Below are positions 39,779 through 53,317 of a stretch of 64,000 nt of DNA, one piece after another. The notes beneath the pieces are model-generated. The model saw only the letters and a program-made list of their open reading frames with translations, did not search any database and was not told the DNA's origin. Position numbers and translations under genes: made by a program. Positions within the stretch are counted from its first letter, which is position 1; every line of letters starts with the position of its first letter. Source of the DNA: Arenicellales bacterium (GTDB lineage: Bacteria > Pseudomonadota > Gammaproteobacteria > Arenicellales > CBDCFT01); contig OZ244198.1 in assembly GCA_965216735.1 (NCBI GenBank), positions 4,927,478 through 4,991,477 on the forward strand, written 5' to 3'.

Positions 39779-40573
39779 CTAAATTGGGCGGTACAAAATG
39801 AACGACAAATCGTCCGGATGAGCAGGGGTTTTATCGGAAGGTGGCCATCGTTTCATACGCTCGCTGGCTTGATCGACTAACGTCTGTGCCGATTCCGGTA
39901 ATGGGCCCTTGCGCACGGATTCAATAATTTCTTCTTCGAATAAGTTATCAAATAATCCATCACTCGCCACCAGCACCGTATCGCGCGGGGCTAACGTAAT
40001 TCGGGTTCCTACATCGATATACATGTCTATGCTTCCAATAACGTTAGACACCAAATTACGCTCGCTATGCAGCAGCGCATCGATTTCGGATAATCTTCCC
40101 GACTCCAGCGCCTCGCCTACCGGTGAGTGCGTTGGCGCGCGGAACTTAGGTTTGCCTTGTTGTCCGATTACCCACACGGAGGAATCACCCACTTGGTAGG
40201 TCAGTAACTCGTTTTCGCGAATCTCGGCCACTGACAATGTGGTTGCGTTACCCGCTTCTTCGCTAACTAGCACGTTGTTACAGCCGTTGACAATTTCCTC
40301 TATGGTATTGTTGCGGTTGTTATTGAGGCCGTGTGCCAGGTCGTCAACTACCCGCTTCGAGGCAGCCGCGCCTTTAGGTAGACCACCTAATCCGTCAGCA
40401 ACGGCCAGAACATTATGTTTTTGGTTGATTTGGATCACGGCGACGGAATCTTCATTGTCCCTGGTTTTTCCGGGCGCTCGTCTAGTAAATACCACCGCGT
40501 CACCACCGCTCAACTTGATTTCGCTGGGTGTATCAAAATCCATCCCGCTGTAGATAAACGGTTGATAAGTCAA
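39779..40573 (-). CDS. PP2C-family Ser/Thr protein phosphatase
   Basis: 'NEDSVAV', 'LAVADGLGG', 'VLVASDGLFDNL'. Confidence 0.8.
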   Translation of the reverse strand: MTYQPFIYSGMDFDTPSEIKLSGGDAVVFTRRAPGKTRDNEDSVAVIQINQKHNVLAVADGLGGLPKGAAASKRVVDDLAHGLNNNRNNTIEEIVNGCNNVLVSEEAGNATTLSVAEIRENELLTYQVGDSSVWVIGQQGKPKFRAPTHSPVGEALESGRLSEIDALLHSERNLVSNVIGSIDMYIDVGTRITLAPRDTVLVASDGLFDNLFEEEIIESVRKGPLPESAQTLVDQASERMKRWPPSDKTPAHPDDLSFILYRPI

Positions 40574-40608: not shown

Positions 40609-41340
40609 TTAGGACCATTCAAGATTCTCGATATAAGCACGCAGTTTACCTGCAGTGCGAAATTTCTTCACAATCAGGGATTGTTTTAGTCCACAGCATA
40701 TCCCTTTGATTTCCGGCGGCAGCGAGGCGTAATGCTTTTGTCCTCCCATTGCATCGTAAAAAATACGTACCAGGCAAATTACATCATGGCGAATGTTTTC
40801 TGCGTTGGGCGGGCCCCAATGAAACATATCCAACAATTTTAGATCAAAGCCTAACCCAAGGCGTTGCACAATCACATTGTCCGTGTGTAAGTCGCCGTGA
40901 TAATCGCCTAACGCGTGAATTTGTTGAATACCCGTAGCCAGCGCGTGCAACAAGTGCAAGGCCTGAAATGGGCTGAGCCGCTTACCTTTTTGACGCTTCA
41001 AGAAATCGGTAAGTAACTCACCTTCCACATAATCGGATACCAGGAACGAGATTTTATGATCCTTGTGCTCGAATTGGTCTTGGGTGTGATACTGAATGAC
41101 GATTGGGCATTGACGCAATTTGTGCAACTTACGCGCGTAAAACTTGAGTGCTCTGTCACGCACATTTCGGTGTGGAAAAAAGAATTTTGCTGTGCGTTCG
41201 ATACCGGTCGCTAGTTCTCGCACCAAATACACTTCACCCTCCCACCCGCCACCGAGAAAACTAGTCACACTGTATTTACCGGCGATAAGGACACCGGGAC
41301 GCAGCCGAAATTTGTCTATTCGGTTTGATTTTTTTCGCAT
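40609..41340 (-). CDS. Small Ser/Thr protein kinase-like protein
   Basis: Gly-rich loop 'LGGGWEGEVYL', 'AKFF' (catalytic Lys region), catalytic loop 'HGDLHTDNVIV', then 'KLLDMF'. Confidence 0.75.
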   Translation of the reverse strand: MRKKSNRIDKFRLRPGVLIAGKYSVTSFLGGGWEGEVYLVRELATGIERTAKFFFPHRNVRDRALKFYARKLHKLRQCPIVIQYHTQDQFEHKDHKISFLVSDYVEGELLTDFLKRQKGKRLSPFQALHLLHALATGIQQIHALGDYHGDLHTDNVIVQRLGLGFDLKLLDMFHWGPPNAENIRHDVICLVRIFYDAMGGQKHYASLPPEIKGICCGLKQSLIVKKFRTAGKLRAYIENLEWS

Positions 41341-48255: not shown

Positions 48256-48405
48256 TTAACCGCTGTCCTGATTTTCTTGTTCTTCTTCCTGTTCTTCGTC
48301 GGGTAAGTACAACGCCCCTTTTTGCCCGCATCCGCCTATTAATACGGATATCACGAGCAGGGTGAAAAGCAGGCGAGCAATTGTTTTAGTGAAAGAGTGA
48401 GTCAT
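48256..48405 (-). CDS. lptM: Small lipoprotein LptM/YifL-like (below the ORF-track length cutoff)
   Basis: My own translation gives 'MTHSFTKTIARLLFTLLVISVLIGGCGQKGALYLPDEEQEEEQENQDSG*'. It has the lipobox LIGGC, the 'GCGQKG.LYLP' signature and an acidic tail, and sits immediately upstream of lysA as in many gammaproteobacteria. Confidence 0.7.
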   Translation of the reverse strand: MTHSFTKTIARLLFTLLVISVLIGGCGQKGALYLPDEEQEEEQENQDSG

Positions 48406-48487: not shown

Positions 48488-49876
48488 TCAATCCCTTTCA
48501 CTCAATCGGGTCCGCGCCCGCTGAACGGCTGCCAATACCTGCTTAGGCGCGGTTCCGCCGATGTGGTCGCGTGCTTTAACCGAGCCCTCAAGCGTCAGCG
48601 AATCGTAAACATCAGCCTCAATATGTTTACAATATGACCGCAGAACGTCAATCGCTAACTCTCCTAATTCCAGCTTGTTGTCAATGGCATGTCGCACCAC
48701 TTGACCGACGATGGCATGCGCTTCCCGGAACGGAATGTTTTTGCGTACCAAATAGTCCGCCAAATCGGTAGCGGTGGCATACCCCTTGATGGCTGCTGTA
48801 CGCATGTTCTCGCGATTAACTGACATCTGCGGAATCATGGCTGCCAATACTTCCAAACATTCGATGACGGTATGCGCTGTATCAAATAGCGGCTGTTTGT
48901 CCTCTTGATTGTCACGGTTGTAACTGAGTGGTTGGCCTTTCATCAGCATTAACAGCGCTTGCAGATTTCCGCTGACCCGGCCGGTTTTTCCACGGATGAG
49001 CTCGGCCACATCAGGATTTTTCTTTTGCGGCATGATACTGGAGCCGGTACAAAAGGCATCGCTCAAGTCGATAAACCGGAATTGTTCCGATGACCATAAC
49101 ACCATTTCTTCAGCTATGCGTGATAAGTGCATCATCAGCACACCGGCATGGGCGCAAAACTCGATAGCGAAATCGCGGTCTGAAACCGCATCCAATGAAT
49201 TTTCCGAGACGGCATCGAAACCCAATTCGGTTGCAGTCATTTCACGATCAATGGGAAAACTGGTGCCCGCTAATGCGGCCGAACCCAAGGGTGATACATT
49301 GACCCGTGTGCGGCAATCGATGAAACGCGCCCGATCGCGTCGCAACATCTCATTCCAGGCGAGTAAATGATGACCAAAAGTAATGGGTTGCGCCGGTTGC
49401 ATATGGGTGAAACCAGGCATGACGGTAGCGGCTTCCTGTTCCGCTAAGTGCACCAACGCTGTTTGAGCACTATGGATTTTTTCGATCGTATTATCCACCA
49501 CATCACGCACATACAAACGCATATCGGTCGCAACTTGATCGTTACGCGAGCGCGCGGTGTGCAGTTTTTTCCCGCTGTCGCCGATGACATCCGTGAGACG
49601 TGCTTCGATGTTCATGTGCACATCTTCAAGTTGCGTTGACCATTCAAACTCACCCGATTCAATTTGCGCACGAATCGTTTCCAGCCCACTAATAATCGAC
49701 TCGCCCTCTGTATTCGATAGCACACCGACACTGGACAACATACGTGCGTGTGCAAGGGATCCGGCAATGTCATACAAAGCCAGTTGCCGGTCCGTATCGA
49801 CCGACGCAGTAAACTTTTCAACTATTTCGTTGGTGGGCGAGGTGAACCGTCCGCTCCACATTTTCTTGTCGTTCAT
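48488..49876 (-). CDS. argH: Argininosuccinate lyase
   Basis: 'WSGRF', 'SRNDQVATD', '[17 protein letters not shown]', '[12 protein letters not shown]'. Confidence 0.95.
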
Positions 49877-49998
49877 CTCGGTGTTTAATCAATCGGAAAT
49901 TGGCGCGAGTATACGCGAAATGCAATCCACCACTTTTTCATTCGATCGCCTGTTTTTCGCCTCATCTTATACTTGATGCTAAATTTCAGGAGTCGAGG

Positions 49999-50026
49999 TT
50001 GACATATTTGTTGTAAACGATATATC
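49999..50026 (+). promoter_or_regulatory. Sigma70-like promoter (TTGACA-16-TATATC) in the argH / algZ intergenic region
   Basis: TTGACA at 49999-50004, a 16-nt spacer, TATATC at 50021-50026. Confidence 0.45.
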
Positions 50027-50049
50027 TTCCGTTTATCCCTTAAATCGAA

Positions 50050-50058
50050 CCGTTTGTC
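50050..50058 (+). promoter_or_regulatory. AlgR-box-like 9-mer CCGTTTGTC
   Basis: 8/9 match to the P. aeruginosa AlgR core CCGTTCGTC as I recall it. Located just downstream of the putative promoter, upstream of algZ-algR. Confidence 0.25.
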
Positions 50059-50189
50059 TGTCGATGGATTGTTCCAAAATCATCTTTTTACTACTCTCAA
50101 CGTGGGCAGGTCACCGGTGATCTGTCCACAACCTGGTTCGGGACACCTTCCTCAGACACCCCCACCTAGTATCCGAATCAGGCACTATA

Positions 50190-50217
50190 CCCCCCGATCC
50201 GTCGGGGGGTTTTTTTC
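50190..50217 (+). terminator. Strong rho-independent terminator with no upstream protein gene
   Basis: CCCCCCGA-tccg-TCGGGGGG followed by T7, about 100 nt upstream of the algZ start. Confidence 0.8.
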
Positions 50218-50313
50218 TGTGCTTGTACCTAATCCGCTAATAAATCATTCGACAGGCATGGTGCTGCCTGATTCTGTGCGTCGGTCTGATATGCGGTCGA
50301 ATTCTTCTGGGCG

Positions 50314-51435
50314 ATGAGAAGACCTAAACGGATGGCGCAGACAAATAAACACTTTCTCACGCGAATGCTTCAACGCCGTACATCCAAAGATGTTGTGAGT
50401 AGCAACTTGGATAATGGTTTCTTACCCAATTTTTGTGTTGGAGGCTCCATCGTCAACGTCGTGGTGCTGGCGGAAATGATTGCGTTAGCGATTACTGTGT
50501 TGACGGATCGAATATCGGCAAATATTTATCAAGATTTCATACTGATTTCACTATTTGTGCAGTGGGTTGCATTGACCAGCATTGCGGTATTGTGTGTGTT
50601 GCGCCGATTACTCAATCGGCTGCCGCCTTGGCGTGCCATTTTTATGGCTTACCTTATCTTGCTTTGTATCACTTGGGTGGTCAGTGAGTTAGCTATCTGG
50701 ATTTTAGCCTGGACGGGTCTCATTACCACGCCTCGCCCTTCATGGTATTTGTATTTTCACGTGCAAAACATCGTCGTCAGCGGTGTGGTGAATGCTTTAG
50801 CTTTGCGCTATTTTCTGGCCCGCGATCAGTTACGCGAAAAAACCTTGGCAGCCGCCGCGGCCCATGCGGAAGTTCAAAAACACCGCGTGCGAAGACATTT
50901 TCTGTTTAACAGCATGAATAGCATCGCCAGTTTAACCCAACGCTCACCGACCAAGGCTGAAGAAGCAATTGAGGACATGTCGGATCTGTTTCGCTTGATG
51001 CTGGATGAAAGCAAAGGTTTGATTGCCGTGCATAAAGAAATTGCCTTGGCAAAAAAATACGTCAAAATGGAAAAACTGCGTTTTCAACGACGGTTGAAAG
51101 TGTCTTGGTCTGTTGGGGAGATACCACGATTTGCGTTAACACCAACATTATTGTTACAACAGTTGTTGGAGGATGCGATCCATGGTGGCATCGAAGCCTC
51201 ACTTACGGGTGGTGAGATTCATGTCAAGGTGAGCGTGCAGGGTGACAAAATCGAATATGCGCTGGATAGTCCTTGGTCTGCGGAAGAACAACACCACCGT
51301 AACCCGTCGGAGTTGATAGAACATATCCGTGCGTGCTTGCAGGAAGAATATCAAGAAAATGCGGAGATTCGGGTTAATAAATCGGGCGAACGCCAATCCG
51401 TCGTTGTTCGCCATCCGATCAGTGTTGAAATATGA
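50314..51435 (+). CDS. algZ: LytS/AlgZ(FimS)-type sensor histidine kinase (His_kinase PF06580-like)
   Basis: Multiple N-terminal TM helices. 'RVRRHFLFNSMNSIASL' is the unorthodox H-box of the LytS/YehU/AlgZ family. 4-nt overlap with algR, and argH is adjacent as in Pseudomonas. Confidence 0.85.
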   Translation: MRRPKRMAQTNKHFLTRMLQRRTSKDVVSSNLDNGFLPNFCVGGSIVNVVVLAEMIALAITVLTDRISANIYQDFILISLFVQWVALTSIAVLCVLRRLLNRLPPWRAIFMAYLILLCITWVVSELAIWILAWTGLITTPRPSWYLYFHVQNIVVSGVVNALALRYFLARDQLREKTLAAAAAHAEVQKHRVRRHFLFNSMNSIASLTQRSPTKAEEAIEDMSDLFRLMLDESKGLIAVHKEIALAKKYVKMEKLRFQRRLKVSWSVGEIPRFALTPTLLLQQLLEDAIHGGIEASLTGGEIHVKVSVQGDKIEYALDSPWSAEEQHHRNPSELIEHIRACLQEEYQENAEIRVNKSGERQSVVVRHPISVEI

Positions 51436-52169
51436 AAATCCTGATTGTCGATGACGAAGTGCTGGCCCGCGACCGTTTACGAGAGCATGTGTTGCGTTTG
51501 GAACCCGAAGCGGATATCGAGGACGCGCAAAACGGCAGCGAAGCAATAGAAAAAGTAAACGCTGGGCAACCCGATATTGTTTTAATGGACATTCGCATGC
51601 CGGTGATGGATGGTTTACAAGCGGCGTCTTACATGATGTCGCTGGACGATCCGCCGGCGGTTGTTTTCACCACGGCGTATGAGGATCATGCGTTGGAGGC
51701 ATTCGAAGTCAATGCCGTCGACTATTTGCTAAAACCCGTGCGTCAGGAGCGCTTACGCCAAGCTTTCGAAAAAGCCGAGCGCTTTTTACGTCAGCCATCG
51801 GACAGAGAAACAACGCGTCGAGACCGGCGAGCGACGCGTTCCCACGTCAGTGTCAACACCCGCGGGCATATTCGCCTGATTCCAGTGAAAGAAATTATTT
51901 ATTTCATGGCCGACAGCAAATACATTACAGTACGCACCGCAAATGCGCGACACTTAATCGAAGATTCCCTGTCTAACCTTGAGAAAGAATTTGGTGATCG
52001 ATTCATGCGGGTGCATCGTAACTCCCTAGTGTCGACGGACTACATACGCGGCCTTGACAAACGAACAGGCAGTAAGTGGGTAGTGATATTGGATAATGTT
52101 GACGAACGTATCGAAGTCAGCCGGCGCCGGTTGCCCACGGTGCGGCGCTGGACTCGGCGCGAATCATGA
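51432..52169 (+). CDS. algR: LytTR-family response regulator AlgR
   Basis: Receiver 'MKILIVDDE...PDIVLMDIRMPVMDG' and a C-terminal LytTR domain 'IIYFMADSKYITVRT...FMRVHRNSLV'. Confidence 0.9.
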   Translation: MKILIVDDEVLARDRLREHVLRLEPEADIEDAQNGSEAIEKVNAGQPDIVLMDIRMPVMDGLQAASYMMSLDDPPAVVFTTAYEDHALEAFEVNAVDYLLKPVRQERLRQAFEKAERFLRQPSDRETTRRDRRATRSHVSVNTRGHIRLIPVKEIIYFMADSKYITVRTANARHLIEDSLSNLEKEFGDRFMRVHRNSLVSTDYIRGLDKRTGSKWVVILDNVDERIEVSRRRLPTVRRWTRRES

Positions 52170-53317
52170 CTGGCATAATCCAAAAATCTTTTACATGGCC
52201 GTTGTTTTTTGTTTTCGCCGCATGTTCTTCGAATTTCGTAATCGCCGCCGATAAAAATATCCTTGGCGAGTACGAATCCAAACACCATACTTTCAAGACC
52301 GTGCGACTGGCGGACAAGTTATCCCATCCTTGGTCTTTGGCTTTTTTACCCAACGGTGATTTCCTGATTACTGAACGACCCGGTCGCCTAAGACAGTTTA
52401 GTAGTGGCGTGCTTGACCCTGATCCTATCGCCGGATTACCGGAAATTGCCGCAACCGGGCAAGGCGGCTTACTGGATATCGCAGCGCATCCGGATTTCGC
52501 CAATAATCAACTGATTTACTTCACCTATTCGGCGTCCAACTGGCGCGGAGCCGGTACCGAACTCGCAAGGGCACGGTTAGTCGACCACCAACTCCAAGAT
52601 CTTGAAGTAATATTTGCCGCAGATCCCAAGTCCTTCGGTGGCCGGCATTTTGGTTCCCGTATTTTGTTTGCGCCGGATGGATTTTTGTACCTATCCCTGG
52701 GGGATCGTGGTAAACGTGAACCAGCGCAGGATTTGTCCAGTCACACCGGTTCAATGATTCGGCTTAATCCGGACGGTAGTGTGCCCGGGGATAACCCGTT
52801 TGTGAGTCAAAATAACGCACAACCTGAAATCTATAGCTACGGTCATCGCAATATCCAAGGTTTGGCGGCGCAACCCGAAACAGGATTGCTTTGGTCGCAT
52901 GAGCATGGACCGCAAGGCGGTGACGAACTCAATATTGTTCGCGCCGGTGCGAACTACGGTTGGCCGGTGATTACTTACGGCCGCAACTACGGTTCGGGCA
53001 CGAAGATCGGTGAAGGAACGGAAAAAGCGGATATGCAGCAACCGGTGTATTATTGGGTGCCTTCTATTGCACCGTCGGGTATGGCGTTTTACAAAGGCGA
53101 TGCATTTCCGAGATGGAACGGTCATTTGTTTATTGGATCGTTAAAATTTCGACACTTGGTTCGGCTGGAACTACAGGGTGAGACGGTGGCAAAAGAAGAA
53201 ATTCTACTGGCACAAGAACTTGGCCGTATTCGCGATGTACGCAGTGGTCCGGACGGTTTTCTTTATTTGTTAACGGACCATGATAATGGGATGTTGCTAC
53301 GTCTTGAACCTGACTAA
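52166..53317 (+). CDS. PQQ-dependent soluble sugar (aldose/sorbosone) dehydrogenase
   Basis: Signal peptide. 'GQGGLLDIAAHPDF', 'HFGSRILFAPDGFLYLSLGD', 'YGHRNIQGLA', 'EHGPQGGDELN...GANYGWP'. Confidence 0.87.
   Translation: MTGIIQKSFTWPLFFVFAACSSNFVIAADKNILGEYESKHHTFKTVRLADKLSHPWSLAFLPNGDFLITERPGRLRQFSSGVLDPDPIAGLPEIAATGQGGLLDIAAHPDFANNQLIYFTYSASNWRGAGTELARARLVDHQLQDLEVIFAADPKSFGGRHFGSRILFAPDGFLYLSLGDRGKREPAQDLSSHTGSMIRLNPDGSVPGDNPFVSQNNAQPEIYSYGHRNIQGLAAQPETGLLWSHEHGPQGGDELNIVRAGANYGWPVITYGRNYGSGTKIGEGTEKADMQQPVYYWVPSIAPSGMAFYKGDAFPRWNGHLFIGSLKFRHLVRLELQGETVAKEEILLAQELGRIRDVRSGPDGFLYLLTDHDNGMLLRLEPD

Follow-up and report, generated by a model that had tools for sequence, protein, structure and literature searches.

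What, if anything, is made from the spacer between argH and the algZ-algR genes of a gammaproteobacterium? In the 64,000-nt stretch of Arenicellales bacterium DNA analyzed here (the window; GenBank assembly GCA_965216735.1, contig OZ244198.1, positions 4,927,478 to 4,991,477), argH and the gene for an AlgZ-like LytS-type histidine kinase are divergent and separated by 437 bp, and the gene for an AlgR-like LytTR regulator follows that of the kinase. A first-pass annotation had picked out a TTGACA promoter, a 28-nt hairpin, a terminator and the AlgR-box-like 9-mer CCGTTTGTC in this gap, all of which are indeed present there, and had proposed either a stand-alone small RNA (sRNA) or a leader that gates algZ-algR. 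The comparisons presented here suggest that the spacer probably contains a gene for a small regulatory RNA of ~113 nt, most likely activated by the AlgR-type LytTR regulator encoded downstream (Table 1).

Conservation and structure of the spacer element

The nearest genome is L001 (an Arenicellales metagenome-assembled genome whose kinase is 72% identical to that of the window), and a protein search with contig look-ups added three more close lineages, L003/L004 and L005. In the spacer alignment of the four close lineages (kinases 72-77% identical), the block that runs from GGTTGAC to TTTTTTTCT shows almost no variation and both flanks diverge sharply, including the ~100 nt between the terminator and algZ. 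From position 50103 onward, hardly any base differs in this clade.

More distant homologs were found in two ways. An exact 20-mer of the core loop (described below) was scanned on metagenome contigs and yielded 21 loci, and a covariance model (R1) was built and run on loci picked by kinase homology only, in order to avoid ascertainment. By the second route, scores of 77-107 bits were obtained for the argH-kinase spacers of L030 (a complete 4.68-Mb genome), L031 and L035-L038, and the exact loop 20-mer is present in all six. The distant loci L006-L008, also selected through their kinases, carry the motif as well, with the exact 20-mer in L006 and L007. The full 51-nt core hairpin is identical to that of the window in L011, L027, L030 and L035-L038, even though the kinases of L030 and L035-L038 are only 48-50% identical to the window kinase; at other distant loci, AlgR is ~54-57% and ArgH 61-69% identical. 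A diverged copy in Sulfurifustis (L002, 43.8 bits) keeps the stem, terminator, boxes and promoter geometry, and its loop differs in sequence while remaining C/U-rich.

The same architecture lies between argH and kinase genes in ~20 distinct lineages. Where contigs are sufficiently long, tblastn gives the order argH (minus), RNA (plus), one or two LytS-type kinase genes and a LytTR regulator gene. Distant homologs share the paired boxes, a TTGC.. hexamer, a TA.A.T hexamer, a variable 5' domain, the core hairpin and a C6/G6 terminator, but not the 5' hairpin or the TTGACA promoter of the window. The taxonomic range seen comprises metagenome contigs, two named metagenome-assembled genomes (Arenicellales and Sulfurifustis) and one locus with a kinase labelled Acidiferrobacteraceae.

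Other settings are also found. In L016 and L028, the RNA sits behind a consensus TATAAT, lacks the boxes and has a very short 5' domain, and no homologs of argH, the kinase or the regulator are present on either contig. The L028 RNA (1640-1800, minus) is convergent with an adjacent gene for a Crp/Fnr-family regulator (836-1582), and the L016 element is at oriented position 435. The RNA can thus occur without being coupled to the kinase operon. In L023 (oriented 380-640), the same loop is carried on a longer stem that is unrelated (GCCAGGGA / UCCCUGGC), with an additional outer helix. The spacing of its boxes, CCGTTTAGA and CCGTTTGAC, is 22 bp instead of 21, TTGTAC-17-CATTAT comes after them, and the RNA directly precedes a LytTR regulator gene with no kinase gene between. 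Matches in L010, L025, L022 and L029 were rejected as homologs, as they cover the loop only, lack the stems, score 18-22 bits and fall in unrelated tandem repeats; L010 and L025, and likewise L022 and L029, consist of ~60-70-nt tandem repeats that contain the 20-nt loop motif. Further copies were found neither in the 64-kb window, with up to three mismatches, nor in viral contigs.

The most conserved part of the element is the core hairpin with its 31-nt loop, which the first-pass annotation had not described. The loop is unpaired in the minimum free energy folds of all homologs. For the stem, pairs were counted in a MAFFT alignment that had not been fitted to any structure, and were compared with 500 shuffles and with registers slid by 1-3 columns. 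The core stem is paired in 96.7% of cells, four of its ten pairs show compensatory double changes, and none of the 500 shuffles reaches the observed values; the slid registers drop to 26-65% paired. RNAalifold independently gives the same two helices, the core stem and the terminator. One core-stem pair is G.U in 14 of 18 sequences and would be C.A on the opposite strand, which fixes plus as the strand that is transcribed. The 185-nt stretch as a whole folds better than its shuffles (z = -4.0, 0/200).

The very strong intrinsic terminator noted earlier is borne out. In the window it is a G+C-rich hairpin with a 9-bp stem, seven of whose pairs are G-C, followed by T7, and its pair probabilities are 0.996-1.0 in both candidate transcripts; all homologs have a terminator of this kind. 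Since the terminator stem is invariant, it is neutral as evidence on structure, neither for nor against. In homologs its C6/G6 sequence (window 50190-50209) is always kept, which is unusual for a terminator stem, and both the length and the sequence of its loop are free to vary.

The 28-nt hairpin at the 5' end does fold as described, with its two imperfect positions forming G.U pairs in a 12-bp helix, though it is specific to the clade: it is invariant in the four close lineages, and unrelated 5' domains replace it in distant homologs. In many of those (e.g. L011, L013, L015, L027, L030 and L036-L038), an A-rich stretch, AAGAAUAU(A), lies directly 5' of the core hairpin, and in other distant lineages a 5' hairpin pairs a UCCU-type arm with an AGGA-type arm. 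These could be chaperone-binding or self-masking features.

Could the conserved block instead encode a small protein? An 87-codon open reading frame (50054-50317) and an 18-codon one that starts at ATG 50064 (MDCSKIIFLLLSTWAGHR) both exist in the window, and three of the four close lineages have an open frame across this region. However, a 1-nt indel in L001 inside the conserved block breaks the frame of the longer one, 8 of the 24 lineages lack any reading frame that spans the loop, and those in the other lineages differ in frame, start and length. Indels between loop and terminator are not multiples of three, the 51 identical nucleotides show no synonymous variation where the neighboring proteins are ~50% identical, and downstream of the terminator there is no conservation at the amino-acid level. 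Neither open reading frame has a Pfam match or a Shine-Dalgarno sequence before its start. A coding function is thus highly improbable, and the earlier statement that no credible open reading frame precedes the terminator holds, with the 87-codon frame present and not conserved across 24 lineages.

Table 1. Predicted elements of the argH-kinase spacer and the flanking genes, in window coordinates
Feature	Position	Strand	Description
Predicted small RNA, ~113 nt (P2 transcript)	50104-50216	plus	covariance-model match 50124-50220, 106 bits
Core hairpin	50132-50182	plus	arms CCUGGUUCGG (50132-50141) / CCGAAUCAGG (50173-50182), 10 bp
Open loop of core hairpin	50142-50172	plus	GACACCUUCCUCAGACACCCCCACCUAGUAU; 31 nt, C/U-rich, presumed seed region
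5' hairpin	50102-50129	plus	12 bp with two G.U pairs; 10 bp within P2 transcript
Intrinsic terminator	50189-50216	plus	ACCCCCCGA / UCGGGGGGU stem 50189-50210, 4-nt loop, T-run 50210-50216 (U7)
Box 1	50029-50037	plus	CCGTTTATC; AlgR/LytTR-type 9-mer
Box 2	50050-50058	plus	CCGTTTGTC; direct repeat of box 1, 21 bp start to start, 12-bp spacer
P2, family-wide promoter	50069-50097	plus	weak -35 TTGTTC 50069-50074, 17-nt spacer, -10 TACTCT 50092-50097
P1, sigma-70-like promoter	49999-50028	plus	TTGACA 49999-50004, 18-nt spacer, TATCTT 50023-50028; 10/12 consensus match
argH	48488-49876	minus	domains Lyase_1 and ASL_C2
algZ-like LytS-type histidine kinase gene	50314-51435	plus	His_kinase PF06580
algR-like regulator gene	51432-52169	plus	Response_reg and LytTR

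Promoters and paired AlgR-type boxes

Two promoters can be proposed for this RNA. The first-pass annotation had read TTGACA-16-TATATC (-10 at 50021-50026), and this sequence is present, but it is kept only in the close clade, where the variant that is conserved in register has TATCTT after a spacer of 18 nt (P1), and the promoter seen in all lineages lies ~70 nt downstream (P2, TTGTTC-17-TACTCT). From P1, transcription would be predicted to start near 50033-50035 and to give a transcript of ~183 nt (50035-50216). Matches of this grade are not rarer than chance in the surrounding 1.2-kb stretch (two found, 1.9 expected), and P1 is accordingly without statistical weight on its own; its support is conservation. 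GGTTGAC and a TAT..T hexamer are invariant in the four close lineages around a spacer that is variable in sequence and constant in length, which suggests a real promoter. No counterpart of P1 occurs upstream of the boxes in any of the distant homologs examined.

For P2, the predicted start is near 50104, and the near-perfect invariance of the close clade begins at 50103. The geometry box 2 - 9 or 10 nt - TTG(C/T).. - 17 nt - TA.A.T recurs in 16 lineages, and in L002 as well, and the predicted transcripts of this type are 112-131 nt long across the 16 lineages.

Upstream of P2 lie two 9-bp elements resembling the AlgR core CCGTTCGTC. Published, experimentally defined AlgR sites include CCGTTCGTC, CCGTTTGTC (algD-RB3) and CCGTTCATC (PMC4064291); box 2 is identical to algD-RB3, and box 1, CCGTTTATC, resembles published sites (PMC4064291). 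The earlier annotation had recognized box 2, though not its partner, and placed it at about +20, counting from the upstream promoter. The sequence is as reported, but together with box 1 it occupies about -75 to -46 relative to the start at 50104, upstream of the conserved promoter. Homologs carry CCGTTCGTC, CCGTTTGTC, CCGCCCATC and similar 9-mers, of the type CCGTTTRTC / CCGCCYATC.

The 64-kb window contains a single match to CCGNNNRTC-N12-CCGNNNRTC, where 0.02 would be expected. Each of the 28 loci with the RNA next to a kinase operon also has just one match, in the corresponding position; the 21-bp start-to-start phasing, with direct repeats 12 bp apart upstream of a weak -35, is likewise found in 28 of these 28 loci. 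Two 9-bp direct repeats 12 bp apart are the layout described for LytTR regulators such as AgrA (PMC4064291). As read from the sequence, the boxes are in an activator position ahead of a poor -35, and binding by the regulator is predicted. In L033/L034 (Acidiferrobacteraceae), the spacer is 170 nt long and contains neither boxes nor RNA. Across the loci chosen by kinase homology, boxes and RNA are thus present or absent together.

Stand-alone RNA, leader or protein-binding element

Judged on sequence evidence, a stand-alone sRNA most likely fits better than an attenuator, and partial read-through into algZ would be compatible with it. In silico, the unit runs from an independent promoter to a terminator without a conserved open reading frame, and a conserved single-stranded seed is displayed on a covarying helix. 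The non-coding unit ending at an intrinsic terminator that the first-pass annotation had proposed as a ~185-nt sRNA thus stands, but the conserved promoter would give ~113 nt.

Several observations weigh against this interpretation. For the RNA, the start site and 3' end are computational predictions, as is dependence on the regulator. Loop invariance in the metagenome subset is partly ascertainment, these loci having been retrieved with the exact 20-mer, and the diverged loop of L002 indicates that the loop can change. In Pseudomonas aeruginosa, AlgR sites are often not in a 9-12-9 layout (PMC4064291). When loop targets were sought within the 64-kb window, neither the longest perfect complement, at 10 nt, nor the counts of 8- to 10-mers exceeded what shuffled seeds give. 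In every operon-linked locus, across ~20 lineages, RNA and kinase operon point the same way, with the RNA directly upstream, an arrangement that would also suit a leader. In the window clade, moreover, no conserved or consensus promoter is visible between 50217 and 50313, and algZ-algR may therefore depend on read-through there.

If the element were such a cis-acting leader or attenuator, transcription from P1, from the box-dependent promoter or from both would mostly stop at the terminator, regulated read-through would set the level of algZ-algR in an autoregulatory arrangement, with the short RNA as a by-product. Since no other paired AlgR-type sites occur at any of the loci, autoregulation would have to use the RNA promoter. 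However, the structure gives no support to the termination/antitermination gating suggested earlier: the terminator forms with a probability near 1, blocking its 5' half costs 11.7-14.6 kcal/mol, and no competing helix, and thus no mutually exclusive antiterminator, was found. The distance from terminator to gene ranges from 80 to 470 nt, with poorly conserved sequence between, and promoter-like hexamer pairs (TTGCAA-17-TATTGT, TTGACT-18-TATTCN) or CATAAT follow the terminator in distant subclades. The L016 and L028 copies, behind TATAAT and away from any kinase operon, also fit a leader poorly. Read-through could be regulated through a protein or another trans-acting factor on the conserved loop, but open loops of 31 nt with an invariant sequence are seen more typically in trans-acting seeds than in expression platforms. 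A leader is thus considered unlikely.

A different possibility is that the RNA acts without base-pairing, its invariant loop, with two GACACC repeats and C-runs, titrating or recruiting a conserved protein in the manner of a sponge. Invariance over 51 nt where proteins are ~50% identical exceeds what most base-pairing seeds need, the C6/G6 terminator stem is conserved in sequence as well, and there is no convincing mRNA target in the 64-kb window. Yet the target search covered only those 64 kb, and no known protein-binding motif is recognized, with neither CsrA/RsmA-type GGA repeats nor an Rfam family to point to one. The L002 loop, moreover, keeps the C/U-rich character rather than the exact sequence, which fits relaxed base-pairing better than a fixed protein site. 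Such a role appears less probable still than that of a leader, and a stand-alone RNA that base-pairs with its targets is the reading followed below.

Known systems and a proposed role

No gathering-level match to Rfam release 15 was obtained in the whole window or in four distant homologous loci. The best sub-threshold matches in the spacer, to anti-hemB (RF02837) and Phe_leader (RF01859), score 23.2 and 24.5 bits against gathering thresholds of 49.5 and 55. These two families share with the window RNA a C-rich segment and a C/G-run terminator; membership in either family was rejected, since the matches are sub-threshold and the alignments rest on the terminator. In the literature searched, the loop sequence is absent and no RNA is described in an argH-algZ spacer. 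Both Rfam and the literature searched thus agree with the earlier impression that nothing of the kind had been reported for this locus.

The closest parallel in logic is the agr P3/RNAIII system of Staphylococcus aureus. There, the LytTR regulator AgrA uses paired 9-bp repeats 12 bp apart before a weak -35 (PMC4064291), as here, and a regulatory RNA encoded beside a two-component operon presents C-rich hairpin loops to Shine-Dalgarno regions (PMC3771888). The likeness is one of logic, as there is no sequence or structural homology. RNAIII is 514 nt long, encodes delta-haemolysin and is divergent from the agr operon, whereas the window RNA is ~113 nt, non-coding and in tandem with its operon; agr serves peptide quorum sensing, whereas the window system is gammaproteobacterial and AlgZ/AlgR-like, with regulation that is predicted.

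A second comparison is with sX13 of Xanthomonas, which, like the window RNA, is short (115 nt), has stable stem-loops with loop-exposed C-runs and contains no open reading frame (PMC3771888). It represses algR and type IV pilus genes (PMC3771888). Along with RsaE and RepG/HPnc5490, it belongs to the RNAs whose C-rich loops are expected to pair with G-rich ribosome-binding-site motifs (PMC3771888). However, sX13 comes from the polA locus, is constitutively abundant and has three loops of the 4C/5C type, whereas the window RNA has one long 31-nt loop, an argH-algZ locus and AlgR-type boxes, and the two have no sequence similarity. The predicted RNA is thus of a familiar kind, an sRNA with a C-rich seed under two-component control; what is new is the family, and its tight and ancient link to an AlgZ/AlgR-type operon by way of LytTR-style repeats.

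The gene order in P. aeruginosa is the same, with argH divergent from algZ-algR and hemC-hemD following, as in the distant homologs here (PMC8787478). The spacer in that species has three Vfr sites and a promoter, PZT1, 23 bp upstream of algZ, and as described it has no reported RNA gene, terminator or AlgR boxes (PMC8787478). In the window clade, a single kinase gene and the regulator gene are followed by a glucose/sorbosone dehydrogenase gene (52166-53317) and not by hemC-hemD, while in distant lineages hemC-hemD(-hemX) follow the regulator, as in Pseudomonas. Two tandem LytS-type kinase genes precede the LytTR regulator in L006, L007, L009, L012, L014, L015, L019, L021, L026 and L030-L038, and the first tandem kinase of distant lineages is only 30-34% identical to the window kinase.

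On the argH side of the spacer, a motif, GCGCGAGTATACGCGAA, is located 28-45 nt upstream of the argH start (window 49904-49921, minus-strand reading; L030 2055-2068; L033 2268-2282), and its GAGTATAC core is kept even in distant lineages. Because it reads TATACT, a good -10, on the minus strand, it is probably the argH promoter. Between lysA and argH there is a 49-amino-acid lipoprotein-like open reading frame (48256-48405, minus), which corresponds to the LptM_cons gene called there in related loci. A search for tRNA and tmRNA genes found none.

A mechanism can be proposed for the stand-alone RNA. The phosphorylated regulator would bind the two 9-bp direct repeats, 12 bp apart and centered near -71 and -50, and would recruit RNA polymerase to P2, whose -35 (TTGTTC) is poor and whose -10 (TACTCT) is usable. 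Transcription is predicted to start near 50104 and to stop at the strong intrinsic terminator, giving an RNA that would consist of the clade-specific 5' hairpin, the 10-bp hairpin, whose C/U-rich loop of 31 nt is single-stranded, and the terminator hairpin, which ends in a U-tail. Within the loop are a C5 run and two segments, CCUUCCUC and CACCCCCACC, similar to the anti-Shine-Dalgarno sequence. By analogy with sX13, RsaE, RepG and RNAIII (PMC3771888), we infer that it might act on mRNAs by pairing with G-rich or Shine-Dalgarno regions and repressing their translation. In the window clade, P1 may, more speculatively, make a 183-nt isoform or feed read-through into algZ; the regulator, once bound at box 1 immediately beside the P1 -10, would presumably block this promoter.

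In a duplex scan that covered the translation-start regions and the full 64 kb, the best duplex with the loop, and the one strong match, is at ~41,240-41,265 (minus, -31.9 kcal/mol). It was rejected as a target, as it lies ~80-100 nt inside a Pkinase-family gene, over the codons of a glycine-rich loop (GGGWEG), and is probably compositional. The short protein-kinase-domain gene there (40609-41340) adjoins a PP2C-type phosphatase gene (39779-40573), both on the minus strand, and the two make up a eukaryote-like Ser/Thr signaling pair.

A broader proposal is more tentative, and on balance doubtful. In Arenicellales and related gammaproteobacterial lineages from metagenomes, the AlgZ/AlgR-type system could act post-transcriptionally mainly through this RNA, which would be the Gram-negative equivalent of agr P3/RNAIII and would silence a regulon by pairing at ribosome-binding sites. 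Leaky termination would feed back on algZ-algR, and in the window clade the regulator would shut an overlapping constitutive promoter, shifting expression from the long isoform to the short one.

Much work has been done in Pseudomonas on AlgZ/AlgR, which there governs alginate, type IV pili and virulence; to our knowledge, its outputs outside that genus are largely unknown. With 51 invariant nucleotides beside kinases that are ~50% identical, and with the only paired AlgR-type boxes of the operon in front of it, the RNA would be a candidate for a conserved direct target of the regulator. If this is correct, it would constitute a new, deeply conserved sRNA family and, independently of staphylococcal agr, a second case in which a LytTR regulator works by way of a neighboring regulatory RNA. 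It would also offer an experimental handle on what the AlgZ/AlgR-type system controls in little-studied environmental bacteria.

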